NCBI GenBank assembly: GCA_903926385.1
Contig: CAIYIS010000025.1
Span: forward strand, 4,405 to 68,404
Source: an uncultured Bacteroidota bacterium
GTDB taxonomy: Bacteria > Bacteroidota > Bacteroidia > 2-12-FULL-35-15
DNA length: 64,000 nt
Reading direction: 5' to 3'
Within the stretch, counting starts at the first letter, position 1. Each line of letters begins with the position of its first letter. The position numbers and the translations under genes were made by a program. The notes below the pieces were generated by a model. It was given only the letters and a program-made list of their open reading frames with translations, was not told the DNA's origin and ran no database searches. This document shows, piece by piece, positions 6,807 through 53,965 of the stretch.

Positions 6807-7754
6807 ATGAACACTATTCAAAACAAGATTAAAGAATTTCTAAATCATTGTAAGTATGAAAAAAATCTAAGTAGTAAAACGATAAAGGCATATACAATAG
6901 ATTTGATGCAGTTTACAAAGTTTTTAATTGAGAAAAAATACTCTCTTGAAATATTGAATATTTCTAAAGTCGAAATTCGTGGATTCTTAGAATCAATTTC
7001 AGTTATGAAACCAAAATCAATAAAGAGGAAAATTGCAACAATTAAGGCCATGTTTAACTTCTTGGAGTATGAGGATTCAATTCTAATTAATCCATTTCGA
7101 AAAATGAGAATTAAGATTCAGGAAGAAAAAAAGTTGCCAAGAGTAATGGAATTAAAGGAAGTAAACTCTATGATGAAATTTGTGTATCGAGAAAATGGTT
7201 TATGCAAAGACTTTGATTCCTATAGCTATTCCGAAACATTAAGGAATACGGTTGTTATAGAGTTATTGTTTGCAACTGGTGCACGAGTTTCAGAAATTGC
7301 AAATCTCAGACTGGAAAATATAAATGTTTCAATTGGTGCTATAACCATTAAGGGTAAAGGAAACAAGGAGAGGATCATTGAAGTATGCAACAAAGAAACG
7401 CTTCAATTATTAAAAAGGTATCAGGGTCATTTCATTGATAAAATAACCGATTCTGGAGGCTTCTTTCTGATTAATCGTTTTGGGAACAAGCTTTCAGACC
7501 AGTCTATCCGTGGGATTGTAAAGAATGTATCAAAAAGTGTAGGAATTACAAAGCTAATTACACCGCATGTATTCAGGCATTCTCTGGCTACTCTCCTTTT
7601 AGAAAATGATGTGGATATAAAATATATTCAATCAATTTTAGGTCATAGTTCTATTATGACCACTCAAATTTATACTCATGTAAACCGCAAGAAACAAAGG
7701 CAAATACTCACTTTGAAACATCCTAGAAAGAATCTTATTATGATAGCTGATTAG
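6807..7754 (+). CDS. Tyrosine site-specific recombinase / integrase (XerD-like)
   Basis: C-terminal catalytic region: ...ARVSEIANLRLENI..., HVFRHSLATLLLENDVDIKYIQSILGHSSIMTTQIYTHV (R..H..R..Y box II signature). N-terminal SAM-like core-binding domain. Confidence 0.85.
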   Translation: MNTIQNKIKEFLNHCKYEKNLSSKTIKAYTIDLMQFTKFLIEKKYSLEILNISKVEIRGFLESISVMKPKSIKRKIATIKAMFNFLEYEDSILINPFRKMRIKIQEEKKLPRVMELKEVNSMMKFVYRENGLCKDFDSYSYSETLRNTVVIELLFATGARVSEIANLRLENINVSIGAITIKGKGNKERIIEVCNKETLQLLKRYQGHFIDKITDSGGFFLINRFGNKLSDQSIRGIVKNVSKSVGITKLITPHVFRHSLATLLLENDVDIKYIQSILGHSSIMTTQIYTHVNRKKQRQILTLKHPRKNLIMIAD

Positions 7755-7785
7755 TTTTCCTGAATGAAGGATAACTAAATATTAT

Positions 7786-8571
7786 ATGTTGTTTGCAATA
7801 GCAAAATTGATCCGTATTGAGAAGAGTATATCCAATTCACTTTCAATTTTTTTTCCGTTAATATACATTACTCGAAACATTTCTTTTAGTTTAAATTATT
7901 CTATTCCCATATTTTTTATGTTTGCGGCTGCTTTTGTCATAAATGATATAAATGATTTAGAAAAAGATAAAATCAATCATAGTAATAGAGCATTGCCTAA
8001 GAATGATATTTCTATTAATATGGCAATCATTTTATATTATTTCTTTCTTGCTGGTGCTTTATTATCAATTAAACTGACCGTTCCTTTTAATTATGTATTT
8101 ATTTACTTGCTTTATATTGTTCTGATTACGAATTATGACTATTTGAATATGGGATACCCATACTTGAAAAACCTATATGTTGTGCTGGTTTTTTCGATTC
8201 ACTTTGCAATACTGTATTTAATAATCCCAATAAATATATTTATATTGATAGGGTTGGTGATAAATATATTATGTAAGGAGATTTACATGGATATCAGAGA
8301 TATTAAAGGAGACGGAAAAACTTTTGCTAAAGTTATGGGTATAAAAAACACTGGTAAAGTAATTCTTTGTTTGCAATTTTTATTGTTGGCTTCTACATTT
8401 ACTGTACTCTATCAAGAATTTTCAATTATTCATTGTTTAGCTTTTATTATTGTTGTCATTACCTTTATTTCTAATGCTATAATTTGGTATCGATATAATG
8501 TACTTAATCTAAAATCCAACATAAATATTATTGTCTTTCAAAATTTTATTATTTATGGACTAATCTTGTGA
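7786..8571 (+). CDS. UbiA-family polyprenyltransferase (membrane)
   Basis: First Asp-rich motif FVINDINDLEKDKINHSNRALPKNDIS (NDxxDxxxD...RxLP) and second motif YMDIRDIKGDGKTFAKVMG (DxxDxxGDxxxGxKT). Eight or more hydrophobic helices. Very AT-rich codon usage. Confidence 0.65.
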   Translation: MLFAIAKLIRIEKSISNSLSIFFPLIYITRNISFSLNYSIPIFFMFAAAFVINDINDLEKDKINHSNRALPKNDISINMAIILYYFFLAGALLSIKLTVPFNYVFIYLLYIVLITNYDYLNMGYPYLKNLYVVLVFSIHFAILYLIIPINIFILIGLVINILCKEIYMDIRDIKGDGKTFAKVMGIKNTGKVILCLQFLLLASTFTVLYQEFSIIHCLAFIIVVITFISNAIIWYRYNVLNLKSNINIIVFQNFIIYGLIL

Positions 8572-9609
8572 TTATTTTAATGCTAAATCAGCAAGCATAA
8601 TAATAATCGTTATTATAAGGGGTAAATCATTAATAGCTAATCGTAGTTGATACTTCAATTCATCCCTTGATATTTTATCTTTTTCACTTAGATATTTGAT
8701 TTTCTCAAACTCGCTTATATTTTCTTTAGAGCTTAATTCTTTATTTAAAATTTCAATTTTAATATCTATTGATTTAGTATATAATTTTCTTAAAAGAGTT
8801 TTAGGATAATAATTAAAAACTATTAATACTGGCATTGCAATTATGGCAAGGTAAAACATAAATATTTTTACAGCTTGACCAAGTTCGGAACTATATTTAA
8901 ATGGACCATGATAATAACTATTAACTTGAAACCATACTGCAAGAACAGTAAATGTTGTTACTACATTTATGTAGGTTGAAATTCCTTCCAATTTATTATC
9001 ACTAAACAAATCTTCATTAAATTCAATATCCTCAATCGATTGCAACATTTGAGCAACATAGAAAATTTTTCTCCCAATATATACTGCACAACCATACATT
9101 GCACACCCATATATTATCATAGTGCTTTCCAAAAACTTATTTTCATAGGGAAACCTGGCAAAATAAAATAAAAGAAAAGAAAGTATAATGTGTATTGTAA
9201 CGATTCTCATAGAACTTTTGATTGAGAAATACGTTGTCTTGTGACGATGAAATATTTTATTCTCAGCCAACTTGGTTTCTCCGAAAACCCTAGATAATAA
9301 ATTTGGGATGTATTCTTGAGTTTTATAAATTTGATAGGTAAGCCCAAATAACAATCCTCCTGTTATAAAGCAATTAAAGCCAATAAAAAAGTCGTGTAGA
9401 TACTGATAAAACGAGTTTCTTAAAAAAATGTATGAAATTAATGAAATAATAAAACCATAAAGGAAGCTTATAAAAAAGCCAAGATAAACGGAGTTCATAA
9501 TAAAAAAAATATTTCTAGATTTGCTATCTTGTTTAGGGTCATTTAGCAACACATTATATTTCATGTATGACGTTAATTCCTTAAAGAGAGTTTGAGCAAA
9601 GTTTTTCAT
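8572..9609 (-). CDS. Polytopic membrane protein of unknown function with charged C-terminal coiled-coil tail
   Basis: 345-aa ORF with ~8 predicted TM segments, no recognisable catalytic motif. Its stop codon abuts the stop of the convergent UbiA-like gene (8571/8572). Confidence 0.4.
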   Translation of the reverse strand: MKNFAQTLFKELTSYMKYNVLLNDPKQDSKSRNIFFIMNSVYLGFFISFLYGFIISLISYIFLRNSFYQYLHDFFIGFNCFITGGLLFGLTYQIYKTQEYIPNLLSRVFGETKLAENKIFHRHKTTYFSIKSSMRIVTIHIILSFLLFYFARFPYENKFLESTMIIYGCAMYGCAVYIGRKIFYVAQMLQSIEDIEFNEDLFSDNKLEGISTYINVVTTFTVLAVWFQVNSYYHGPFKYSSELGQAVKIFMFYLAIIAMPVLIVFNYYPKTLLRKLYTKSIDIKIEILNKELSSKENISEFEKIKYLSEKDKISRDELKYQLRLAINDLPLIITIIIMLADLALK

Positions 9610-9793
9610 ATTGATAATATTTAGTTATCCTTTATTAACAAAAATCTAAAAAAATACGATTACGGCATAAATGTAAGGAAAATATAAATATCCTAAAAAT
9701 TCAATAAACGAACATAATGTATTTTGATGATATTTTATTTGCCATAATAGATTTCTTGCATTATAAATCTACTACAAGTATAATATAAATTAT

Positions 9794-10399
9794 ATGGTGA
9801 TTGATAAAAATGAATTCTTTAATAATTTTAAAAGAGCTAAATCACGATATAAAGAACTTCAAGATGTATCCATTACTTTACGTTTCGGTAAAAGTCCTTT
9901 TTTTACAATGCAAGCATTACTAGAACCAATATCACTTTTTCAAAAGAAAAAAAAATACTTTGTATTAATAAATTTGAAAAGAACAGATTTTCTTTCTCAG
10001 TTATCAGAGGATAATATTCTTGGTTGGTTTGGGCACGAATTAGCCCATATAGTAGAATATGAAAAATTGACCAATTTAAATCTTTTTGTTTTTGCAGTAA
10101 AATACCTGTTTGATTCAAAATTCAGATACTTCGTTGAACGAAGTACTAATGCATTTGCCTTCAATAATGGTTTCGCGCTTGAATTATTTTTGGTTTGGAA
10201 GAAATTTATCTCAATGGATATTAAAGATATAAATTACAAAAAGTATATACTTGAAAATTATTGTCCACATTGGGCTGACATCAAAGAAACCGCACAAAAT
10301 TTCGGCATAAGTAAACAAATTTATGAGTCAATGAAACAGACCAAGGTAGTTAATTTTAAGACTACTGCAAAGATAAAGAACAAAATTAAGTCAAAATAA
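9794..10399 (+). CDS. HExxH-motif protein, possibly ImmA/IrrE-family metallopeptidase-like
   Basis: WFGHELAHIVEYEKL (HExxH plus downstream E). It sits in a mobile element that also encodes an XRE-type HTH protein. The family assignment is an inference from the motif only. Confidence 0.35.
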   Translation: MVIDKNEFFNNFKRAKSRYKELQDVSITLRFGKSPFFTMQALLEPISLFQKKKKYFVLINLKRTDFLSQLSEDNILGWFGHELAHIVEYEKLTNLNLFVFAVKYLFDSKFRYFVERSTNAFAFNNGFALELFLVWKKFISMDIKDINYKKYILENYCPHWADIKETAQNFGISKQIYESMKQTKVVNFKTTAKIKNKIKSK

Positions 10400-10400
10400 A

Positions 10401-10434
10401 CCCCTCTTCGTATTTTAAACGATAGAGGGGTTTT
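10401..10434 (+). terminator. Rho-independent terminator (CCCCTCTtcgtattttaaacgatAGAGGGGtttt)
   Basis: 7-bp GC-rich stem plus T-tract directly after the stop of 9794..10399. Confidence 0.6.
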
Positions 10435-10456
10435 GAAATAAGGTTGAAAAATATGC

Positions 10457-10581
10457 TTCTACGTCATCGTAACGTAATGAAATCACGATTATTCAATCCT
10501 TGCTTACTATTTGAATCCCATATTCTGAAAAATATAATTCTACGTCATCGTAACGTAATGAAATCACGATTATTCAATCCT
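10457..10581. repeat. Two perfect 44-bp direct repeats (TTCTACGTCATCGTAACGTAATGAAATCACGATTATTCAATCCT) separated by a 37-bp spacer
   Basis: Copies at 10457-10500 and 10538-10581 are identical by eye. Each contains the dyad TACGT-N7-ACGTA. Confidence 0.8.
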
Positions 10582-10848
10582 AGGTATTCAATTAAATTAT
10601 ACATACTTTGAATCATTTTGCAATGTATACGCTACATCTCAACAATTTAGACAACCAAAAACACATATTTAACAAATGAATCAATTAATAATGTTGGTGT
10701 TATACCCTTGCGAAAAATCAGTAATAGCATCAGGAAGTCTAAATTATTAACATTTTTTAATGAAATAATGTTAATAATATACCAAAATTGATTTATAAAA
10801 ATCGGGAAATAACATATCTTTGTCGAAGAAAACTATCCAAATAACTGA

Positions 10849-23513: not shown

Positions 23514-24263
23514 ATGATAAAAGCTATAATAATAGATGACGAGAAAGGCGCCCGTGAGTCTTTATCTAAAATGATAGAAAAATACTGCCCTGAAATAAGA
23601 GTGGTAGAAAAAGCAGACTGTATGAAAGCCGCACTCGAGGCTATCGAACTTTACGAACCTCAACTTATTTTTCTGGATATTGAAATGCCCAACGGAAATG
23701 CCTTCGATTTGCTCGAAAAGGTGCGCGATATCAATTTTGAAATAATTTTCACTACCGCTTATGATCATTATGCCATAAAAGCCATAAAATTCAGCGCCAT
23801 TGATTACATTCTAAAACCCATAGACCCCGAAGAACTGGTACTGGCTGTAAACCGCTTGCAAAGTAAGGTGAATCAGAAGGAGGTTATGAAACAAAAGTAC
23901 GATACCCTGATAGGCAATATGAAACCCGGAAGCAAATCAAAAAAAATAGGCTTGCTCGATGGCGATTCGTACGTGTTTGTTGATATTTCCACCATCATTC
24001 GGTGCGAATCTTCGAATAACTTTACCATTTTTTTCTTCACCGATGGAAGAGAATTGGTGGTAACCCGCACTATGGGCGATTTTGAGCAGCTACTCACCGA
24101 TGATGATTTTATGCGGGTTCACCGTTCTCACCTTATCAATTTTAATCATATCAAAAAATTTATTCGTGGCGAAAATGCGTACGTTATTATGGACGATAAT
24201 GCCGAAGTTGAAGTGTCGCGAAGAGGAAGAATGGACATTTTAGACAGAATTTCCAGAGGGTGA
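23514..24263 (+). CDS. LytTR-family response regulator (REC + LytTR DNA-binding domain)
   Basis: MIKAIIIDDE...FLDIEMP is the receiver domain. C-terminal VHRSHLINFNHIKKF is the LytTR signature. Immediately downstream of the LytS-type kinase. Confidence 0.85.
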   Translation: MIKAIIIDDEKGARESLSKMIEKYCPEIRVVEKADCMKAALEAIELYEPQLIFLDIEMPNGNAFDLLEKVRDINFEIIFTTAYDHYAIKAIKFSAIDYILKPIDPEELVLAVNRLQSKVNQKEVMKQKYDTLIGNMKPGSKSKKIGLLDGDSYVFVDISTIIRCESSNNFTIFFFTDGRELVVTRTMGDFEQLLTDDDFMRVHRSHLINFNHIKKFIRGENAYVIMDDNAEVEVSRRGRMDILDRISRG

Positions 24264-24267
24264 CCTA

Positions 24268-24330
24268 CCATTCACCCTGCCAAAAGTACCATTCACACCC
24301 CCTAAAGTACCAAATTCTAAAAGTGCCCCC
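24268..24330 (+). repeat. Repeat element copy A (CCATTCACCCTGCCAAAAGTACCATTCACACCCCC + degenerate third unit), starting 5 bp after the LytTR gene stop
   Basis: 35/35 identity with 28527-28561. Internal 9-bp direct repeats AAAGTACCA-12 bp-AAAGTACCA, and a further AAAGTGCCC. Confidence 0.75.
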
Positions 24331-25098
24331 TTTTTTATTTTTTTCCTCGGTAAATTTGTGCCAGAAATAGCAATCAATTAAAATTTAATCCGATTCTGTT
24401 TTTTTATCAGATTTTATCCTGATAAGTTCTTTGAAAAGAAAAATAAGTAAGAAGGGTTGGCAATTCGTTCTTTTTTTGATTTACTGCATGGGGATGTTGT
24501 ATCAAAAATCAATTCGGCCCTTCCCTTATTTTTTTCGACTCGAAAAAAGTTTAACAATTAATAAATAGAAATCATGAACAGAAAAATCGCATCCATCCGC
24601 AGGCACTATTTCCGCAAAGAGGAGGTAGGAACTGGAACCATTTTGTTGGCTATTGCCACAGTAATTATTATCTTTTTAAGTATTTATAACGCATAGTTGT
24701 TTGTTTAGTTAGTAGTTTGTTTGGTTGTTCAGAGGCGGTATTCATAAGAATATCGCCTTTGTTTTTTTACCGCAATTCCGAAATTCGCCTCCTATTTTCC
24801 TATTTTTCACCATAAATTAAACGCTTTTTATAAATGATTTAACTGTTTTGGATAATTCTTTTATCCGTTTTGGATAAATGTTATAGACGTTTTGTTTATG
24901 ATTTTGTGAGTATGTTTCAATAAATTGATTTAACGGCCATTTGGCGAAAACCTTTTCTATGCCTTAAAAACGTTTCCGAACTCAAAAAGACTACCCAAAA
25001 AAAGGTGTCCTTTTTATAAAAAATGCTTTGTAACCACGTTTTTTAGTACTTTCGCCTTCCATTTATAATTCATCATTTATCATCAATAATTTATTGTC

Positions 25099-26847
25099 AT
25101 GTTACGTACACACACTTGCGGAGAATTAAGAATAACTAATGTTTCACAAACGGTTACCATAAGCGGATGGGTGCAGGGAGTGCGCGACAAAGGCTCCTTA
25201 CTTTGGATTGACTTGCGCGACCGTTACGGAATTACACAAATAACCATCGAAACCGAAAATGCCGATAAAGCAGTTGTTGATAAGGCTCGTTCGTTGGGTC
25301 GCGAATATGTAATCAGTGTTACCGGAAAGGTAAACGAACGGTATTCCAAATCGGATAAAATTCCTACCGGTGATGTGGAAATAACTCCCGAAAAGATTGT
25401 AATTCTCAATACCTCCATCACTCCACCTTTTACCATCGAAGATGATACTGACGGAGGTGACGATATTCGAATGAAATATCGTTACATCGATTTGCGAAGA
25501 AATGCAGTACGTAAAAACCTGGAACTTCGCCACCGAATGGCTATCGAAACCAGATTATATCTTGATAAATTAAGTTTTCTGGAAGTAGAAACACCCGTAC
25601 TTATTAAATCTACTCCCGAAGGAGCCCGCGATTTTGTGGTGCCATCGCGTATGAATCAGGGTGAGTTTTATGCCTTGCCTCAATCGCCTCAAACATTTAA
25701 ACAACTACTGATGGTAGGAGGTTTCGACCGTTATTATCAAATTGTAAAGTGTTTTAGAGATGAAGATTTACGTGCCGACCGTCAGCCCGAGTTTACCCAA
25801 ATAGATTGCGAAATGGCTTTTGTGGAGCAGGAAGATATTTTGAATACCTTCGAAGGATTGATTCGTCATTTATTCAAAAGCGTGAAAGGTATTGATATTC
25901 CTGCGCTATCGCGAATGACCTATGCTGATGCCATGAAATTTTATGGAAACGACAAACCGGACATCCGTTTTGAAATGAAATTTGTGGAATTAAACGACAT
26001 TGTAAAAGGCAAGAGTTTTAAAGTGTTTGACAATGCCGGCTTGGTGGTTGGTATATGTGCCAAAGGTGCTGCCGAATATACCCGCAAGCAACTGGACGAG
26101 TTGACCGAATTTGTGAAACGCCCTCAGATAGGCGCTACCGGCTTGGTGTATGCCCGCTACAACGTAGACGGAACCATAAAATCATCCGTAGATAAATTTT
26201 ATAACGAAGAAGAATTGAAAAAATGGGCAGCTGCATTCAATGCTCAGCCCGGAGACCTTATACTATTGCTTGCCGGAGAAGAACACAAAACCCGCAAAGC
26301 TCTTTCCGAATTGCGTTTGGAAATGGGCAACCGACTTGGCTTACGCGATAAAAACACCTTTGCCTGCCATTGGGTAATCGATTTTCCTTTGCTCGAATTT
26401 AACGATGAGCTCAATCGCTGGTATGCCATGCATCATCCGTTTACTTCACCAAAACCGGAAGATATTCCAATGTTAACCTCCAATCCTGGCACAGTAAGAG
26501 CGAATGCTTACGACATGGTGATAAACGGAGTGGAAGTAGGTGGTGGTTCCATTCGTATTTTCAACAAACAATTACAATCGCAAATGTTCGATTTACTAGG
26601 CTTTTCGAAAGAAGACGCTCAGGCTCAATTTGGATTTTTGATGAATGCCTTCGAATTTGGCGCTCCTCCTCACGGTGGTATTGCCTTCGGATTCGACCGT
26701 TTATGCTCGCTTTTTGGCGGAGCCGAAGTAATCCGCGATTTTATTGCTTTCCCTAAAAACAATTCGGGACGCGATGTAATGATCGATTCACCTTCGCCTA
26801 TTGCACAAGCACAATTGGATGAGTTAGGTATTGGTTTGAAAAAATAA
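25099..26847 (+). CDS. aspS: Aspartate--tRNA ligase
   Basis: N-terminus [11 protein letters not shown], class II motifs [17 protein letters not shown] and GGSIR..., and full length 582 aa. Confidence 0.95.
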
Positions 26848-28526: not shown

Positions 28527-28576
28527 CCATTCACCCTGCCAAAAGTACCATTCACACCCCCAAAAGTGCCGAATTC
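28527..28576 (+). repeat. Repeat element copy B in the divergent promoter region between the plug-like gene and the ECF sigma gene
   Basis: CCATTCACCCTGCCAAAAGTACCATTCACACCCCC is identical to copy A, followed by AAAAGTGCCGAATTC. Confidence 0.75.
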
Positions 28577-28687: not shown

Positions 28688-29260
28688 ATGAGTTATTCAG
28701 AAATCAATTTCAGCAAGCTTAGCGATAGCGAGCTACTGGAGAATTACAAACAAACACACGATAAGAAGGTGATTGGCGAACTTTATAAACGTTACACTCA
28801 CTTAATTTTGGGTATGTGTATTAATTTTTATAGAGATAGAGACGATGCAGAGGATGCATTGCTCCAGATTTTCGAACAGTTAATGGAAGACCTGAAAAAG
28901 CATGAAGTAAATTGTTTTAAAGCCTGGCTAATTTGCAAAGTAAAAAATTATTGTCTGAACGACTTAAGGTGTAAAGATTTTCAGAATCTGGCAATGCAGC
29001 AATTCCAACAATTTGTCAGCACAGATGTTTCGGAACCCGACAATGAGTTGCTCGATAAAAAGGAAAATATGTTAGAACGCCTCCATAAGTCGATTCATGA
29101 ATTAAATGATTTTCAAAAAAAATGTATTGAATTGTATTACCTGCAAAATAAATCCTATGCCCAAATTGTTGCTATAACAGGCTATTCCCTCAAGGAAGTG
29201 AAAAGCTATTTGCAAAACGGAAAACGTAATTTGAAATTAATATTGTTAAATAATAAATAA
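28688..29260 (+). CDS. RNA polymerase sigma-70 factor, ECF subfamily
   Basis: Region 2 (ELYKRYTHLILGMCINFYRDRDDAEDALLQIF) and region 4 HTH (LYYLQNKSYAQIVAITGYSLKEVKSYL). Confidence 0.75.
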   Translation: MSYSEINFSKLSDSELLENYKQTHDKKVIGELYKRYTHLILGMCINFYRDRDDAEDALLQIFEQLMEDLKKHEVNCFKAWLICKVKNYCLNDLRCKDFQNLAMQQFQQFVSTDVSEPDNELLDKKENMLERLHKSIHELNDFQKKCIELYYLQNKSYAQIVAITGYSLKEVKSYLQNGKRNLKLILLNNK

Positions 29261-34339: not shown

Positions 34340-35077
34340 ATGAAAAAATTAAAAATAGGAATCGTAGAAGATGAAATGATTATTGCTAATGTGCTCGAAG
34401 AAATGCTGACTGCAGTAGGATACGAGGTAACCGAATTTGCTTGTCGGTACAGCGAAGCCATAACAATGATTGAAAACGAAAAGCCTGATTTGCTTTTGCT
34501 CGATATCAATTTGCTCGGACAAAAGAACGGTATTGATGTGGCCGAAACAGTGCGCAGTAAGTACGACATCCCTTTTATTTTTCTTACCGCCAACTTGGAT
34601 AACAAAACCATTGAACAGGCAAAACAAGTGAAGCCCTCTGCATACCTTGTTAAACCAGTTACCAAAGAGCAATTGTATTCAGCCATAGAAATTGCATTCA
34701 GTAATTATAATGACGAAAACAGAATTTTGCCAACTGTGGCTTCTGCACACCCGCAAGCGGTTCACGACTTTATATTTATTAAAGATGGATACGTTTTCAG
34801 AAAAATATTCTTTAAAGACATTCTGTATCTCGAGAGTGATGCCAATTATGTAACCATTCATCTTGAAAACGGAAAAAAACTAATGGCTCGATTCACGATG
34901 AATGATTTTCTGGAACAAATAGACCAAAAAATATTTGTGCGCATTCATCGTAGTTTTGTGGTAAACTTTACCATGATTGAAAATGTTTTTCCAAGCGAAG
35001 TTTCGGTGAAAGGCACAATGGTGGCCATTGGCAAGAGTTATAAAGACGACCTAATGAAATTGCTCGGCTTAAATTAA
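34340..35077 (+). CDS. LytTR-family response regulator
   Basis: REC domain (KIGIVEDEMI...LLLDINL) and LytTR domain (VRIHRSFVVNFTMIENV). Immediately downstream of the TPR kinase. Confidence 0.85.
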   Translation: MKKLKIGIVEDEMIIANVLEEMLTAVGYEVTEFACRYSEAITMIENEKPDLLLLDINLLGQKNGIDVAETVRSKYDIPFIFLTANLDNKTIEQAKQVKPSAYLVKPVTKEQLYSAIEIAFSNYNDENRILPTVASAHPQAVHDFIFIKDGYVFRKIFFKDILYLESDANYVTIHLENGKKLMARFTMNDFLEQIDQKIFVRIHRSFVVNFTMIENVFPSEVSVKGTMVAIGKSYKDDLMKLLGLN

Positions 35078-35936: not shown

Positions 35937-36869
35937 TCACTCTCCTTTTAAAACCCCAAATGTTTTTAATAAAAGCTGAGTAGAAGTTTCGGTGAGAATA
36001 TAATTACCGGGTGGTAGCTTTTTTATTAAACCCATTCGTTTCAGCTTGGGCAGATGCTTTGCAAAACCTCCTGTAGAGAGGCCTGCAATAGTGCGCAGTT
36101 CGTTGCCGGTAGCTTTTCCATTATTATGCAAACAAAGCAATTCCTTTGCAACATTTGTATATAAATCGTGCATAGCAGTACGGGGCAAATAACCGTGCAA
36201 TGCAGCTTCCAGCCTTTTCAGGGTAGCTTTATCTATTGTTATTTTCGATGGCAAAGTATGCGTATCCTCTATTCTAGGCGCTATAACCGATGCTCGATTT
36301 TTCTCCGCATTGCTATTTCTTTCTTCAATGGCTTTCAGAAAATCGAGGTAGAATGTATAAAGCGATTGTTGCCTATCCCCGGTTTTTAAATACTCTTCCA
36401 AAGCAGTTATTAGTTTATCTTCAAAAATGTGATAGGGTATATTTTCCGAATTATCCCAATTCTGCAAAGCCGCCAATGCCTTTAAAAATGATTGTATGCT
36501 ATTCCCAATTTCAGGAATATAGATTGAAGAAGAATTTATTCCAACCTTATTTTCAGGAATAGCTTCTGAACTCGTTTTTACACCAACCCTATTTTCGGGA
36601 ATGCCCGTTGAAGAAGTTTTTTCTCTATTCCCATTTTTCGGAATATCGGTTGAAGAAGATTTTATACCATCCCTGTTTTCAGGAATAGGCTCTGAACGAG
36701 AATTTATACCAACCTTATTTTTGGGAAAGCCTTCTGAATAAGAATTTATGTCTAACTTGTTTTTGAGATACGCATTTTCATTCTTTAGAATCATCAAGTG
36801 CTTTAAGAGAATCTGAATTATCTTTTCGGGAATGATATTCAGTTTTTCGGCTTCATTATTTGTATCCAT
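35937..36869 (-). CDS. Protein with 7 tandem 13-aa repeats (..GIPENxVGxxSSS..) and a C-terminal winged-helix-like DNA-binding domain
   Basis: EGFPKNKVGINSRSEPIPENRDGIKSSSTDIPKNGNREKTSSTGIPENRVGVKTSSEAIPENKVGINSSSIYIPEIGNS. C-terminal NELRTIAGLSTGGFAKHLPKLKRMGLIKK. Confidence 0.45.
   Translation of the reverse strand: MDTNNEAEKLNIIPEKIIQILLKHLMILKNENAYLKNKLDINSYSEGFPKNKVGINSRSEPIPENRDGIKSSSTDIPKNGNREKTSSTGIPENRVGVKTSSEAIPENKVGINSSSIYIPEIGNSIQSFLKALAALQNWDNSENIPYHIFEDKLITALEEYLKTGDRQQSLYTFYLDFLKAIEERNSNAEKNRASVIAPRIEDTHTLPSKITIDKATLKRLEAALHGYLPRTAMHDLYTNVAKELLCLHNNGKATGNELRTIAGLSTGGFAKHLPKLKRMGLIKKLPPGNYILTETSTQLLLKTFGVLKGE
36480..36790 (-). repeat. ~39-bp in-frame tandem repeat (about 7 copies) inside gene 35937..36869
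   Basis: Recurrent ttcaggaatagcttctgaactcgttttt-type units visible on the plus strand, with periodic 'ggaat' and 'ttga'/'ctga' landmarks every ~39 bp. Confidence 0.6.
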
Positions 36870-49916: not shown

Positions 49917-50010
49917 TTTCTTATTATTTTATTGTTTATTTATTAATTGGAGATTAGATAATTTTAAGACCTTAAGAAATCTCCGAATCTTATGGTCTCT
50001 ATATTTTTAA

Positions 50011-50544
50011 TTAATTCAATTTAATGTTTTTCAATCCGTCCCATCTTGGGTCGGTTTTGTCTTTTTTCTCTTCTTTGGTCAAAAACTTTTTGAGTTTTTT
50101 GAGCACTTCCTTGTTACATGTCGATTTTCCTTTGCTGTCGAGCGGATGTTCGCGCTTAATAGGCAACGAAAGCGTAATGTATTCATAAATATACTGCGAC
50201 AAATCGAGTTGGTGTTCGTTAGACGACACTGAAATAATATCATCGTCCTCGCTTTCCTCTTCGGTTCCGCCAAATTTCACAATGAGTTTATATGTACCTG
50301 ATATAGGTAAATCGAACTCGGTAGCACATAAATCGCAAATAACTTTTACAGTTCCCGATATTTCGAACTGCAGAATCATCATTTGAGATTGACGAAGCAA
50401 ATTTAGGTTTACGGTAATGTCGGCTTGCTTAATTTCTGAATAATCAAGGTGCTCAAAGAACGCATCATTAACCTTAAACTCATATTTATGCTCCCCAAGA
50501 GCTAATGCTACAAACTGAATAATGTACTGTTTCCGGTTTTGCAT
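50011..50544 (-). CDS. yceD: DUF177 / YceD-family protein (23S rRNA accumulation protein)
   Basis: Conserved position upstream of rpmF, typical length, acidic C-terminus. Confidence 0.75.
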   Translation of the reverse strand: MQNRKQYIIQFVALALGEHKYEFKVNDAFFEHLDYSEIKQADITVNLNLLRQSQMMILQFEISGTVKVICDLCATEFDLPISGTYKLIVKFGGTEEESEDDDIISVSSNEHQLDLSQYIYEYITLSLPIKREHPLDSKGKSTCNKEVLKKLKKFLTKEEKKDKTDPRWDGLKNIKLN

Positions 50545-51017
50545 TTTATAAAAGTTTTAAAGAAAAGACCGCAAAGGTAAAAAAATAAGCTTTACGTCAA
50601 AATCTTATCGAAAATTTAATTTTTAGGCTCCATTTTGAGTTTATTTTGGAGTTTTCAATGTAAAAAAAGGTCGTATTAGGTTTCAAAGAGGCAATAAATG
50701 TTGATTGGTTTGACTAAAAAACATTTATGTTTATCACTTGGCAACATTCTCACATAGAAATAAGTCGGACCATATCTGAGTAAAAAAACGGAAATCCCGT
50801 AAAATCTCAGATTCTATTAAGCCAAGAAACGCTGGCCTTCATAAATAAAACTTGCCTTACCATCTTTTTGAGAAAAACAATGTTTTCTGCCCTTACTTAC
50901 TCTTCAAAACACCCTATACTTTATATTATAATACATTACGAAAATAAAATGCATTTTAAAACAGATTTTCGGCAAAAAAACACGAATTAATAAGTGGTCG
51001 GATCACTATATTTTTTT

Positions 51018-51295
51018 TATACTAGTCTTTTTGCCATTTATACTAGTCTAAAAAAAATTATACTAGTCTCTTTGGTATTTTTACTTGTCTTATTAAAAAC
51101 ATACTAGTCTTTTTGACATTTATACCAGTCTAAAAGAAATTTTACCGGTCTCCTTGATACGTATACTAGTCTAAAATGAATTATACAAGTCTTCTGGGCA
51201 TTTATATCAGTCTAAAAGTAATTATATTAGTCTTTTAAACTTTTAGACTTGTCTTTTTATAAATACACTAGTCTTTTTGATAAAGATACTACTCC
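51018..51295. repeat. Iteron-like array: about 14 copies of TAYACTAGTCT at ~20-22-bp phase, alternating T-rich (TTTTTGNCATT) and A-rich (AAAANNAAT) spacers
   Basis: tatACTAGTCTttttgccatttatACTAGTCTaaaaaaaattatACTAGTCTctttgg...ttACTTGTCT...atACTAGTCTttttgacatttataCCAGTCTaaaagaaattttaCCGGTCT...gtatACTAGTCTaaaatgaattataCAAGTCT...tatATCAGTCTaaaagtaattataTTAGTCTtt...agACTTGTCT...acACTAGTCT. The core contains the palindrome ACTAGT. Confidence 0.8.
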
Positions 51296-51549
51296 GAAAT
51301 AATTTTTACTGACATCTTGTTCAGTTTACTTGTTGCTTTGCTATTTAATCCATTATCAGAATCTTTTGGTAAGCCCCCATCTGCCTGTAGTTTTCAAATC
51401 TATTCAAATCTTGATAAAAAAGTGAAGGTATTTACCGTGAAAAACAAAATCCCCAACTAATGAGTTGGGGATTTTAATTACCAATTATTTTTCCAGCATC
51501 AATATCAAAAAAGACCTATATACATATATATGTATACAAAAGATGAATT

Positions 51550-53202
51550 TTATAAGAACAAACTAAAAATCCAATAAAACAAAGCTCCCAAAATAGCGCT
51601 GATTGGAATGGTAAGAATCCATGCCCATAATAAACTTACAGTAACTCCCCATTTAACAGCACTAAGTCCTTTGGTGGCACCAACCCCGATTATTGCACCT
51701 GTAATGGTATGGGTAGTAGAAACCGGGATACCCATTTGCTCAGTTAGAAACAAAGTTGTGGCCCCGGCAGTTTCTGCACAAACGCCTTCCAAAGGAGTAA
51801 CCTTTGTGATTTTGGTTCCCATGGTTTTCACAATTTTCCAGCCTCCACTCAGTGTTCCGAGTCCAATAGCAAGGTAACACGATAATGGAATCCAATCAGG
51901 CATAGATTTTATATCAACAATGCTTCCGTTTGCAACCAAAGCTGCTGCTATAATTCCCATTACTTTTTGTGCATCATTACCTCCATGTCCTATACTGAAA
52001 GCTGCAGAAGAAAGTAATTGAGCTCTTTTAAAGGAAGTAGACGTTCGTTTGGCACTCGGTTTTTTAATTTTTTCGTTGTAAATGAACATGAATGCAAAAA
52101 TCATTAGCATCACTACAAGACCCCAGCGTATAATTTTGTTATCTGCTTTATTTAGTTCTTTGGTAAGATCGGCTTTTATGTCAATCTTCATGGCTTTACT
52201 AAAGTCTTTTATCTTATCCGGAGCAATCGGGCATTTTGTGTTCATGGTAGCCACCATGCCGTCAAGTCCCAATTCAAAATACTGTTTAGTTATTGATTTT
52301 AACGAGTCAATAATCTTTTGCGTAGCTAAATATTCGTCCTTATACGATGGATCAACTTTGGCTTTGTTTTTTAGTTGCTCAATCTTGAAATAGGCATTTA
52401 GTTTATCACCAAGTTTGCTAATGGTAATTTCCTTCATATCTACATTATTCACTATTTCATTGGCTACATATTCCGAACCATGGTACTCGTATTTGGAGAG
52501 AAATGGGGTACACAACGAAGCATTCAAAAGTGCCTTTTCGAGTTTATGAGTCTTGGTACTATCGTGTTTTACATTTATTTCGTATGTGTATTTATCAACC
52601 TTAAAAAACTTGCTTACATTTTCAGATAATTTTGTTTCCTGAAAACCGATAAATAAAAAGTAAATCATACAGGCCGAAGCTCCAAGTATACCCACTTTTA
52701 GCCAAGTTCTGTTTTGTATAAAAATAAGTGTGTAAAAAATGGAAATTACCATACCTATAAGTGGGGCAAAAAGAATAAACATAACGGTTTTACCTATTTT
52801 TTCACTATCGATAATTTCATTTATTGGCATCAAACCTTTACTTAAAAAAGCATAAGCTATGGCAGCCCCGGCAAAGCCACCGATTAAAGTGTGTGAAGAA
52901 GAAGATGGGATACCATACCACCAGGTAAGTAAATTCCATAAGATGGCAGCTATTAATCCGCTACAGATAACAGGCAAAGAAATAAAATCGGAATAAACTG
53001 TTTTGCCAATAGTGTTGGCTACCGCATGGTCTTTAAATATTAAAAACGCAACAAAATTAAAGAACGCTGCCCACAAAACTGCCTGAAATGGCGTCAATAC
53101 TTTAGTGGAAACAATGGTGGCTATGGAATTAGCCGCATCGTGAAACCCATTGATGAAATCGAATATCAGAGCGAGTGCTATAACTATTACAAGTAAACTC
53201 AT
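51550..53202 (-). CDS. Inorganic phosphate transporter, PiT (PHO4) family, with a large central cytoplasmic insert
   Basis: N-terminal GFHDAANSIATIVSTKVLTP and repeated C-terminal GGNDAQKVMGII PHO4 motifs. Confidence 0.85.
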   Translation of the reverse strand: MSLLVIVIALALIFDFINGFHDAANSIATIVSTKVLTPFQAVLWAAFFNFVAFLIFKDHAVANTIGKTVYSDFISLPVICSGLIAAILWNLLTWWYGIPSSSSHTLIGGFAGAAIAYAFLSKGLMPINEIIDSEKIGKTVMFILFAPLIGMVISIFYTLIFIQNRTWLKVGILGASACMIYFLFIGFQETKLSENVSKFFKVDKYTYEINVKHDSTKTHKLEKALLNASLCTPFLSKYEYHGSEYVANEIVNNVDMKEITISKLGDKLNAYFKIEQLKNKAKVDPSYKDEYLATQKIIDSLKSITKQYFELGLDGMVATMNTKCPIAPDKIKDFSKAMKIDIKADLTKELNKADNKIIRWGLVVMLMIFAFMFIYNEKIKKPSAKRTSTSFKRAQLLSSAAFSIGHGGNDAQKVMGIIAAALVANGSIVDIKSMPDWIPLSCYLAIGLGTLSGGWKIVKTMGTKITKVTPLEGVCAETAGATTLFLTEQMGIPVSTTHTITGAIIGVGATKGLSAVKWGVTVSLLWAWILTIPISAILGALFYWIFSLFL

Positions 53203-53320
53203 TGTGAATTATAAATTATGAATTATGAATTTTACGATTTGAGGAGTTATAAATGATGAATGAAAGTACAAAAGAAATGCTCTGTTTATAATCTACTATT
53301 CACCTTCTATAATTTCAACC

Positions 53321-53965
53321 CTAAGCGTTTTTAATTAAAATGGTATTAATAATGTTGGCGGCCTCTTCGCATTTATCGGTTGCTGTTTCCAAAACAAACA
53401 AAACGTCTTTCATTTTAATAACCTCCACAGCATTTTTTTCTTCTTCAAATAATTTAGCAATAGCCATGTCGAATATATCGTCAGCATGATTTTCGATGCT
53501 GTTAATTCTTACAGTCGACTCTTTTATTTTTGAAATATTTTTAAGATTTCTCAATTCAGAAACAGCTATCTGCAACTCTTCTGTACTTTTCAAAATAAGT
53601 TCGGCCAGTTTAACAATTGCCGGAGTCATAGTTTCCACTTTATACAGTTCTATGCGTTTGGACGCACCATGTATATAATCCACTACATCATCTATGGCCG
53701 AAACCAGATTATGAATATCATCTCTATCGAAAGGGGTAATAAAATTTATGCTTAACTGATTATAGGTTTCGTGTGTAATATCATCACCAACGTGTTCCAA
53801 GCGTTCTATTTCGCGAAATAATTCTTTTCTTCTTTCGTGTGAGGAAGTGTTTACCAATTCCACCAATGCCTTTGAAGTTTCGGTAGCATTAGCAGTGGCT
53901 TTTTGAAAAAGCAGGAAAAATATTTTGTCTTTTGGCTGAAAAAAATGAAAGATATTTAAGTTCAT
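53321..53965 (-). CDS. DUF47 / PhoU-like phosphate transport regulator (TIGR00153)
   Basis: Helical DUF47 pattern. Canonical partner directly upstream of the PiT gene. Confidence 0.7.
   Translation of the reverse strand: MNLNIFHFFQPKDKIFFLLFQKATANATETSKALVELVNTSSHERRKELFREIERLEHVGDDITHETYNQLSINFITPFDRDDIHNLVSAIDDVVDYIHGASKRIELYKVETMTPAIVKLAELILKSTEELQIAVSELRNLKNISKIKESTVRINSIENHADDIFDMAIAKLFEEEKNAVEVIKMKDVLFVLETATDKCEEAANIINTILIKNA

Follow-up and report, generated by a model that had tools for sequence, protein, structure and literature searches.

A two-helical-turn intergenic array between pit and yceD in an uncultured Bacteroidota bacterium, and its putative place in a lineage-specific class of satellites

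The intergenic DNA between pit and yceD in the 64-kb stretch of uncultured Bacteroidota DNA analysed here (referred to as the window) carries 13 direct copies of an 11-bp core, repeated at about two helical turns. Judged by the sequences that we compared, this array appears to belong to a lineage-specific class of intergenic satellites, with periods of approximately 21, 42 or 63 bp, in a clade of uncultured freshwater Bacteroidota. The reading that we tentatively prefer is that the array acts at the DNA level as a helically phased minisatellite, where cooperative binding along one face of a bent DNA stretch may exert architectural or titrating effects locally. Almost as likely as such a DNA-level binding platform is a satellite without function.

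The wider interest of the array is that a whole lineage carries mutually unrelated arrays that obey a period of two helical turns, with conserved cores, predicted bending and the exchange of cassettes between near-identical strains. If such arrays are bound by protein, they would constitute natural multi-site titration or architectural elements, as well as a tractable model for the birth of satellites from operator pairs; should the expansion of operator pairs (see below) prove true, it would represent a new route leading from bacterial regulatory sites to satellites. If nothing binds them, the arrays would caution against reading phased repeats as iterons or origins, and would still account for the breaks of metagenome contigs at array loci.

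Anatomy and genomic setting of the array

The array, its flanking genes and the neighbouring signals are as follows (window coordinates, strand in brackets).

51550-53202 (-): PHO4/pit gene, one flank of the array, beside PhoU_div
51519..51536 (no strand): perfect A/T-only 18-bp palindrome TATACATATATATGTATA directly after the pit stop codon, adjoining the pit-side cassette boundary
50671..51515 (no strand): replaceable intergenic cassette of 845 bp that contains the array, defined by strain comparison
51445..51476 (-): strong intrinsic-terminator hairpin (14-bp stem and T run) that ends pit transcription, inside the cassette
51395..51402 (-): isolated -7-like box TAGATTTG, preceding the array in minus-strand direction, without a properly spaced -33 element
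51285..51295 (+): degenerate 14th copy (GATACTACTCC) at the array edge
51018..51281 (+): 13 direct copies of the 11-bp core TAnAYnnGTCT (consensus TATACTAGTCT), forming 6.5 units of 41 bp
50788..50800 (-): another hairpin of terminator type (ACGGGATTTCCGT + T7), in the part of the cassette that separates the array from the yceD promoter
50572..50601 (-): candidate Bacteroidetes-type yceD promoter (TTTG-N18-TACCTTTG), a motif match 27 bp before the start codon
50011-50544 (-): YceD gene, the other flank, followed by L32, PlsX and FabH, all on the minus strand

The cores share an invariant GTCT, anchored at positions 51025, 51046, 51066, 51087, 51107, 51128, 51148, 51169, 51189, 51210, 51230, 51251 and 51271, and their core-to-core spacing follows a strict 21, 20, 21, 20 alternation with a mean of 20.5 bp. 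TRF detects the array in the window at periods of 21, 41 and 82 over 51016-51280, and its self-identity at a 41-bp shift amounts to 0.65-0.74. The consensus of the 41-bp unit is TATACTAGTCT-TTTTGaCATT / TATACTAGTCT-AAAAaaAAT, with T-rich spacers (TTTTGnCAT) following the odd copies and A-rich spacers (AAAAnnAAT) following the even ones. An earlier note, made from the letters of this DNA alone, had described about 14 sites phased on one DNA face, with a repeat of ~20-22 bp and alternating T-rich and A-rich spacers, lying ~0.5 kb from yceD between pit and the yceD-rpmF-plsX-fabH genes. This description holds in its essentials, as there are 13 clear copies and a degenerate 14th, the 21/20-bp spacing averages about two helical turns, both spacer types are present, and 474 bp lie between the array end and the yceD start codon; its higher-order unit of ~43 bp is replaced by the measured 41 bp. 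The palindrome ACTAGT, which the same note placed in the core, is exact in six of the 13 copies, but the cores are asymmetric and all have the same orientation, thus making the array one of direct repeats of an asymmetric core.

When the 64-kb window was searched with the 11-mer allowing at most two mismatches, 27 matches were obtained compared with 15 +/- 4 in shuffled sequences (none of 100 shuffles reached 27); all 13 array copies were clustered among them, and 12 matches outside the array were scattered single sites. No ORF of at least 40 aa was found across the array, which is non-coding, and two ORFs of 40 and 47 aa elsewhere in the cassette appear spurious. The 41-bp period together with the strict 20/21 alternation also excludes a reading frame, and coding or pseudogene heptad repeats were ruled out on the same grounds.

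In the 41-bp register, core positions carry 13 mismatches in 132 and spacer positions 30 in 114 (Fisher p=7.6e-4), a comparison in which the core was defined post hoc, after inspection, and in which the units share ancestry and are not independent. The core consensus of one half-unit equals that of the other at all 11 positions, but the spacers do not match, being T-rich in one half and A-rich in the other. In the older sister arrays described below, the per-column variance is 1.7-3.2 times the binomial expectation, and it is not raised in the young ones. A wedge model predicts that the window array is strongly curved: its ratio of end-to-end distance to contour length is 0.685, compared with 0.894 +/- 0.064 for random window fragments (1.7th percentile). 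Under the same model, five of nine clade arrays fall at or below the 1.7th percentile and three of the nine are not curved. Short palindromes occur in several cores (ACTAGT, GGTGCACC and CTCCCGGGAG), and a palindromic core was dropped as a feature of the class, since whole-unit dyad symmetry is only marginal (combined p=0.04).

The setting of the array is A+T-rich. Read along the minus strand, the pit stop codon is followed by the A/T-only palindrome, the strong terminator, the array between unique stretches of ~150 bp (pit side) and ~220 bp (yceD side), the second terminator-like hairpin and the yceD promoter candidate. Two minus-strand terminators thus bracket the array, where 0.4 would be expected, and one of them separates it from the yceD promoter. 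This promoter candidate, TTTG-N18-TACCTTTG, matches what we take to be the Bacteroidetes promoter motif; it lies in the flank that is common to both alleles (see below) and is therefore not part of the array. No Bacteroidetes-type promoter motif was found inside or just downstream of the array, and the -7-like motif at 51395..51402 gives a weak hint that a minus-strand transcript may run through it. The cassette ends (TAGGTCTTTTTTG... and ...CCTAATACGACC) have no inverted repeats and no match to ends of the GAGACC type; nor were convincing terminal inverted repeats or target duplications detected, the only likeness being a loose similarity between GGTCTTTTTTGATATTG and GACCTTTTTTTACATTG. A second copy of the unique parts of the cassette (leader and tail) or of the core was found neither in the 64-kb window nor in the fetched loci.

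Alleles in near-identical strains and arrays in related species

Contigs encoding exactly the same YceD were compared, and two forms of the locus were seen; lake sample ERZ27313325 yielded the array allele and ERZ27300129 the alternative one. Over 50000-52000, array included, four contigs obtained from different samples (L024-L027) show 100% identity to the window. Contig L023 (identical to L073) has 98.9-99.0% identity to the window over ~7 kb on each side, with no other large difference, and in it the 845 bp at 50671-51515, comprising both terminators, the array and the flanks, are swapped for an unrelated segment of 397 bp. This segment contains a different phased array of its own (~4.7 units of 42 bp, GAAGCCTATGCTAGAAACTTAGGATACACCTAAACTCTAGTA), so that the alternative allele is a different cassette and not an empty site. 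The window-type allele is also present in a third strain, L074, at 98.7% identity. The array is thus stable within its allele, as the four identical contigs indicate, yet dispensable, as the replacement in L023 demonstrates. The earlier note had proposed that absence or high variability among near-identical strains, if without effect on expression, would speak for a neutral minisatellite; of these, absence is shown in the strain of 98.9-99.0% identity.

Arrays found elsewhere are listed below (coordinates of the respective loci).

L001 1533-1712, L002 2705-2906 and L005 1307-1481: 21-bp arrays upstream of yceD
L075 6990-7290: array with core GGTGCACC and an A5 tract
L077 8162-8472: array of 42-bp units that are 98% identical
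L079 7476-7723: array with core CATCTGCAATWG
L089 12914-13318: young array of 17 units of 21 bp, with central units 99% identical and degenerate edges, away from pit and yceD
L006 4539-4752: array of ~12 units of 17 bp (AAAGGAAGTAGACAAAA, 93% matches) in the yceD-rpmF gap of a more distant relative

A scan with YceD covered 22 uncultured freshwater Bacteroidota genomes (best identity 81%), and in none of the 22 does pit adjoin yceD or does the motif of the window array occur. Conservation of the array at the syntenic position, a check raised by the earlier note, is accordingly found in no related species. The closest relatives have arrays with a strict 21-bp period upstream of yceD, the sequences of which are unrelated to that of the window array. 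Similarly, in three species with a Pit protein 89-91% identical (L075, L077 and L079), a different array is located 0.35-1.5 kb downstream of pit, in rearranged contexts. Together with the window array, the L023 allele and the array of L089, nine non-coding arrays are thus known in the clade, all with a base period of 20.5, 21 or 42 bp and all with unrelated sequences; in the related species the periods are 21, 42 or 63 bp. Most of the clade arrays lie at synteny breakpoints, mainly near pit or yceD, and gene calls over the sister arrays appear spurious. The central units of young arrays are 98-99% identical and their edges degenerate, a pattern characteristic of amplification.

Away from pit and yceD, another genome of the clade has no array in 21 kb. 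In distant relatives (Pit 83-87%, YceD 60-66%), which keep a compact pit-164aa-luxE-tyrS synteny, no 21/42-bp arrays were found in 162 kb of outgroup sequence, and the sole array seen there, that of L006, has a period of 17 bp; no other long array departed from 21/42. Note also that the density in the clade, ~45 arrays per Mb, was obtained from a 178-kb sample biased to two loci (pit and yceD) and is for this reason only indicative. Non-coding satellites in bacteria occur mostly at 0-3 per Mb, with no common period reported (Subirana and Messeguer, 2019, PMC6749651). Those satellites resemble the arrays described here in being non-coding tandem arrays of at least four units of 10-200 nt (PMC6749651); they differ from the clade arrays, all of which share the two-turn period, at ~45 per Mb in the biased 178-kb sample.

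Possible roles and origins of the array

Acting at the DNA level, the array would have arisen by local amplification, in which a ~21-bp seed gave the 41-bp double unit and this in turn a period of 82 bp. With a period of two helical turns, the 13 conserved cores all face the same side of the helix, and the alternating T4-5 and A4-8 tracts may sum to an intrinsically bent stretch. If active, the array would serve as a platform of many sites, which a sequence-specific tandem-binding protein would coat cooperatively, with a local architectural, insulating or titrating effect and with no replicon function. The conserved core, the diverged spacers and the predicted curvature are consistent with a cooperative binding platform, and among the neighbours of the array no cognate binding protein or adjacent regulator gene was found. 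A satellite without function would account just as well for the dispensability of the array in a near-identical strain. This explanation, which we hold to be possible and nearly as likely as the binding platform, assumes a neutral or selfish minisatellite of the same amplification origin to which nothing binds specifically, its 21-bp period and conserved cores resulting from mutational or recombinational bias and recent homogenisation. It is favoured by the absence or replacement of the array in a 99%-identical strain, by the lack of any sequence conserved across species at the same site, by array ages that range from young to decayed, by the lack of a consistent gene association, and by the clustering of arrays at synteny breakpoints, in long young intergenic DNA. 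However, the clade arrays share the two-turn period, in one case as a strict 20/21 alternation not divisible by three, the cores are significantly better conserved than the spacers, and the array is identical in four samples and hence not hypervariable.

A plausible seed for the amplification would be an ordinary two-turn-spaced operator pair of the LytTR type, expanded by slippage or unequal exchange. Operators of LytTR regulators such as AgrA, ComE and VirR consist of 9-12-bp direct repeats ~12 bp apart, and in the known ones two or three such sites directly precede a promoter. In the window, a LytTR response-regulator gene is located at 23514-24263 and a second LytTR gene at 34340-35077. 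Directly after the former, a pair of 21-bp direct repeats (TACCATTCACnCnnCCAAAAG) is found at 24266-24312, and the pair is found again at 28527-28567, ahead of an ECF sigma-factor gene (28688-29260); these pairs are probably operators of the LytTR regulator encoded at 23514-24263. A LytTR pair is already a two-copy 21-bp tandem repeat and could therefore be expanded by slippage or unequal exchange. We infer that such a seed would explain why the repeats recur every two turns in direct orientation, why the core is conserved and the spacer free, and why each array has a different core. The window array resembles a LytTR-type operator in its same-orientation cores, its 20-22-bp period, its conserved core and its free spacer, but instead of two or three sites by a promoter it has 13 sites, no adjacent promoter motif and no linked regulator. 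To our knowledge, 13 sites are far beyond any described LytTR operator. The most far-reaching proposal, that the two-turn-phased satellites form an undescribed class that arises repeatedly from expanding LytTR-type operator pairs, acts as coating or titrating 'sponge' DNA at rearrangement hot spots and is swapped as cassettes, we consider rather unlikely.

The earlier note had seen in the array a structure typical of iterons or of cooperative binding arrays for plasmid Rep, partition or DnaA-like proteins, or of nucleoprotein filaments. That it represents the iterons or centromere of a replicon, or a chromosomal origin, and binds a Rep, ParR/ParB or DnaA-like protein for the control of replication or segregation, is a reading that is already largely refuted and to which we give hardly any weight. 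Its attraction is that phased ~20-bp direct repeats in an A+T-rich setting resemble plasmid iterons and the parC and sopC arrays. Indeed, the 13 sites at 21/20-bp spacing correspond to the 17-22-bp direct repeats in helical phase that characterize iterons, and the array has in common with plasmid iterons and centromeres (R6K, F and pPS10 iterons; R1 and pSK41 parC; F sopC with its 43-bp units) both ~11-22-bp direct repeats in helical phase and a higher-order unit of ~41-43 bp, an architecture suited to cooperative coating. However, those elements adjoin rep or par genes and are essential to their replicon, whereas the window array is located among chromosomal housekeeping genes and is dispensable. 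Its neighbours are PHO4, PhoU_div, YceD, L32, PlsX and FabH, with no adjacent Rep gene and no adjacent parMR or parAB operon as expected for a partition centromere; more generally, no rep, par (parMR, parAB), dnaA or dnaN gene was found in the neighbourhood or among the window ORFs examined. DnaA boxes (at most one mismatch) are at chance level in the window (24 observed, 22 expected), with none in 44-55 kb. The examination of GC skew and dnaA proximity suggested in the earlier note gives the same answer for an origin, as the local skew trend follows gene orientation without a switch at the array and there is no dnaA nearby. A chromosomal oriC would also be expected to have a DnaA-box cluster, usually next to dnaA or dnaN, and to be essential and conserved between strains and species, and the array is replaced in a 99%-identical strain and absent in 22 relatives. 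A replication origin was thus ruled out by the number and position of DnaA boxes, the GC skew and the neighbouring genes. Searched by BLAST, the cassette matched none of 72,556 plasmids and none of 50,697 phages, and scans of viral contigs with the core of the window array and two sister cores returned chance two-copy matches only; both results leave decoy copies of phage or plasmid iterons without support.

The closest described relatives of the array are the 23- and 41-nt minisatellites of MITEs in Porphyromonas gingivalis (PMC4596501). There, BrickBuilt is built of 23-nt repeats and MITEPgRS of 41-nt repeats, and BrickBuilt and MITEPgRS/464 have a leader and a tail, IS5-type terminal inverted repeats and ~19 copies per genome (PMC4596501). 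These elements resemble the window array in their occurrence in Bacteroidetes, their strictly intergenic location, their 22-23- and 41-nt units and their strain variability; here, in contrast, inverted ends are lacking, there is no second copy in 64 kb, and each array has its own sequence. [quoted passage not shown] This is improbable given that terminal inverted repeats or IS5-type ends are missing at the cassette boundaries, that neither the window nor the fetched loci contain a further leader, tail or core, and that the alternative allele is a different cassette instead of an empty site.

An even less probable possibility is that the array is transcribed on the minus strand and acts as RNA, either as a repeat-motif sponge or in a manner similar to a type III antitoxin, the transcript ending at the 50800-50788 terminator. 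Type III toxin-antitoxin loci consist of tandem 34-45-nt repeats, a terminator and then a gene for a ToxN/AbiQ-type toxin. The 41-nt unit is within the ToxI-type repeat range, two minus-strand terminators bracket the array where 0.4 are expected, and a -7-like box is present at 51402(-). Nevertheless, the folding z-scores are only -1.9 and -2.7, the units neither form hairpins nor covary with one another, helical phasing has no bearing on RNA, and Rfam covariance models gave no match at the gathering score (best E-value 0.26). An RNA hairpin array was rejected since there are no unit hairpins, no covariation (by eye) between T-type and A-type spacers, and only modest z-scores. A type III toxin-antitoxin system was set aside because, despite the 41-nt units and the terminator, the next gene is the conserved yceD, which does not encode a ToxN-type toxin and is present in all the array-less relatives.

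Several other candidates were discarded. A Pho box, suggested by the proximity of pit, can be rejected by inference, since the core is different in every species. REP/BIME or neisserial NIME arrays, in which a single repeat family is spread over many intergenic sites, do not apply, as the core is confined to the array and each relative has an array of different sequence. An array of restriction-site-like palindromes is contradicted by the frequency of ACTAGT elsewhere (3 observed, 3.3 expected), so that this palindrome is not avoided. Finally, a shared array-associated protein family was dismissed as the proteins encoded beside the arrays are not related to one another and gave no PHROG or NCBIfam matches.

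Other repeats and gene contexts

The statement of the earlier note that nothing comparable is seen elsewhere in the window is correct for non-coding DNA, but the window also contains a coding 42-bp repeat of ~7 units at 36477-36786. It belongs to ORF 35937-36869 on the minus strand, the 310-aa product of which contains 14-aa repeats (IPENRVGxxSSSE-like) specified by it and shows a weak winged-helix match towards the C-terminus; the frame is open despite a unit divergence of ~30%. At the equivalent place in L089, downstream of cysS and a peptidase M28 gene, the non-coding-looking 21-bp x 17 array is found. Approximately three 22-bp repeats containing CnGTTTTGGATAA are present at 24793-24899, upstream of aspS (25099-26847), and two of them include TTATCCAAA, one mismatch away from a DnaA box.

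The phoU_div-pit pair has different neighbours on both sides in four close species (window 51550-53965, compared with L075, L077 and L079), whereas among distant relatives (L081-L085, L090 and L091) the order pst-phoU-phoU_div-pit-164aa-luxE-tyrS is fixed. The clade is therefore highly rearranged around the phoU_div-pit module, and arrays are located at the junctions of this rearrangement. In L077, the array lies within a small accessory island of hypothetical genes (7092-10752), which also comprises a gene with a PD-(D/E)xK-like motif, recognized by eye only (8788-9573), and a 99-aa HTH_3 protein. In L001 (1533-2124), the array ends 41 bp before a 123-aa gene, the product of which resembles an HTH and coiled-coil protein and has only a weak PHROG transcription-regulator match; here an array may adjoin its own binder. 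An 8-bp microsatellite (TGCAACAA, ~10 copies) preceded by a GC-rich hairpin is located at 15898-16070 of L089, just upstream of a gene start.

A pattern scan of metagenomes returned 39 heterogeneous loci, mostly unrelated tandem repeats, and a similar style was seen in L033 only. Positions 1-400 of this 1.1-kb contig (Ga0194131_10160795) hold a 21-bp repeat of ~18 units, in which the core, CACTAGTCTA, is conserved and the spacers vary, and both the style and part of the core are those of the window array. In addition, the metagenome contigs L076 (at its contig end) and L017 (1-55) stop inside 21-bp arrays, and from contigs that end in this way it appears that the satellites fragment short-read assemblies of the lineage.
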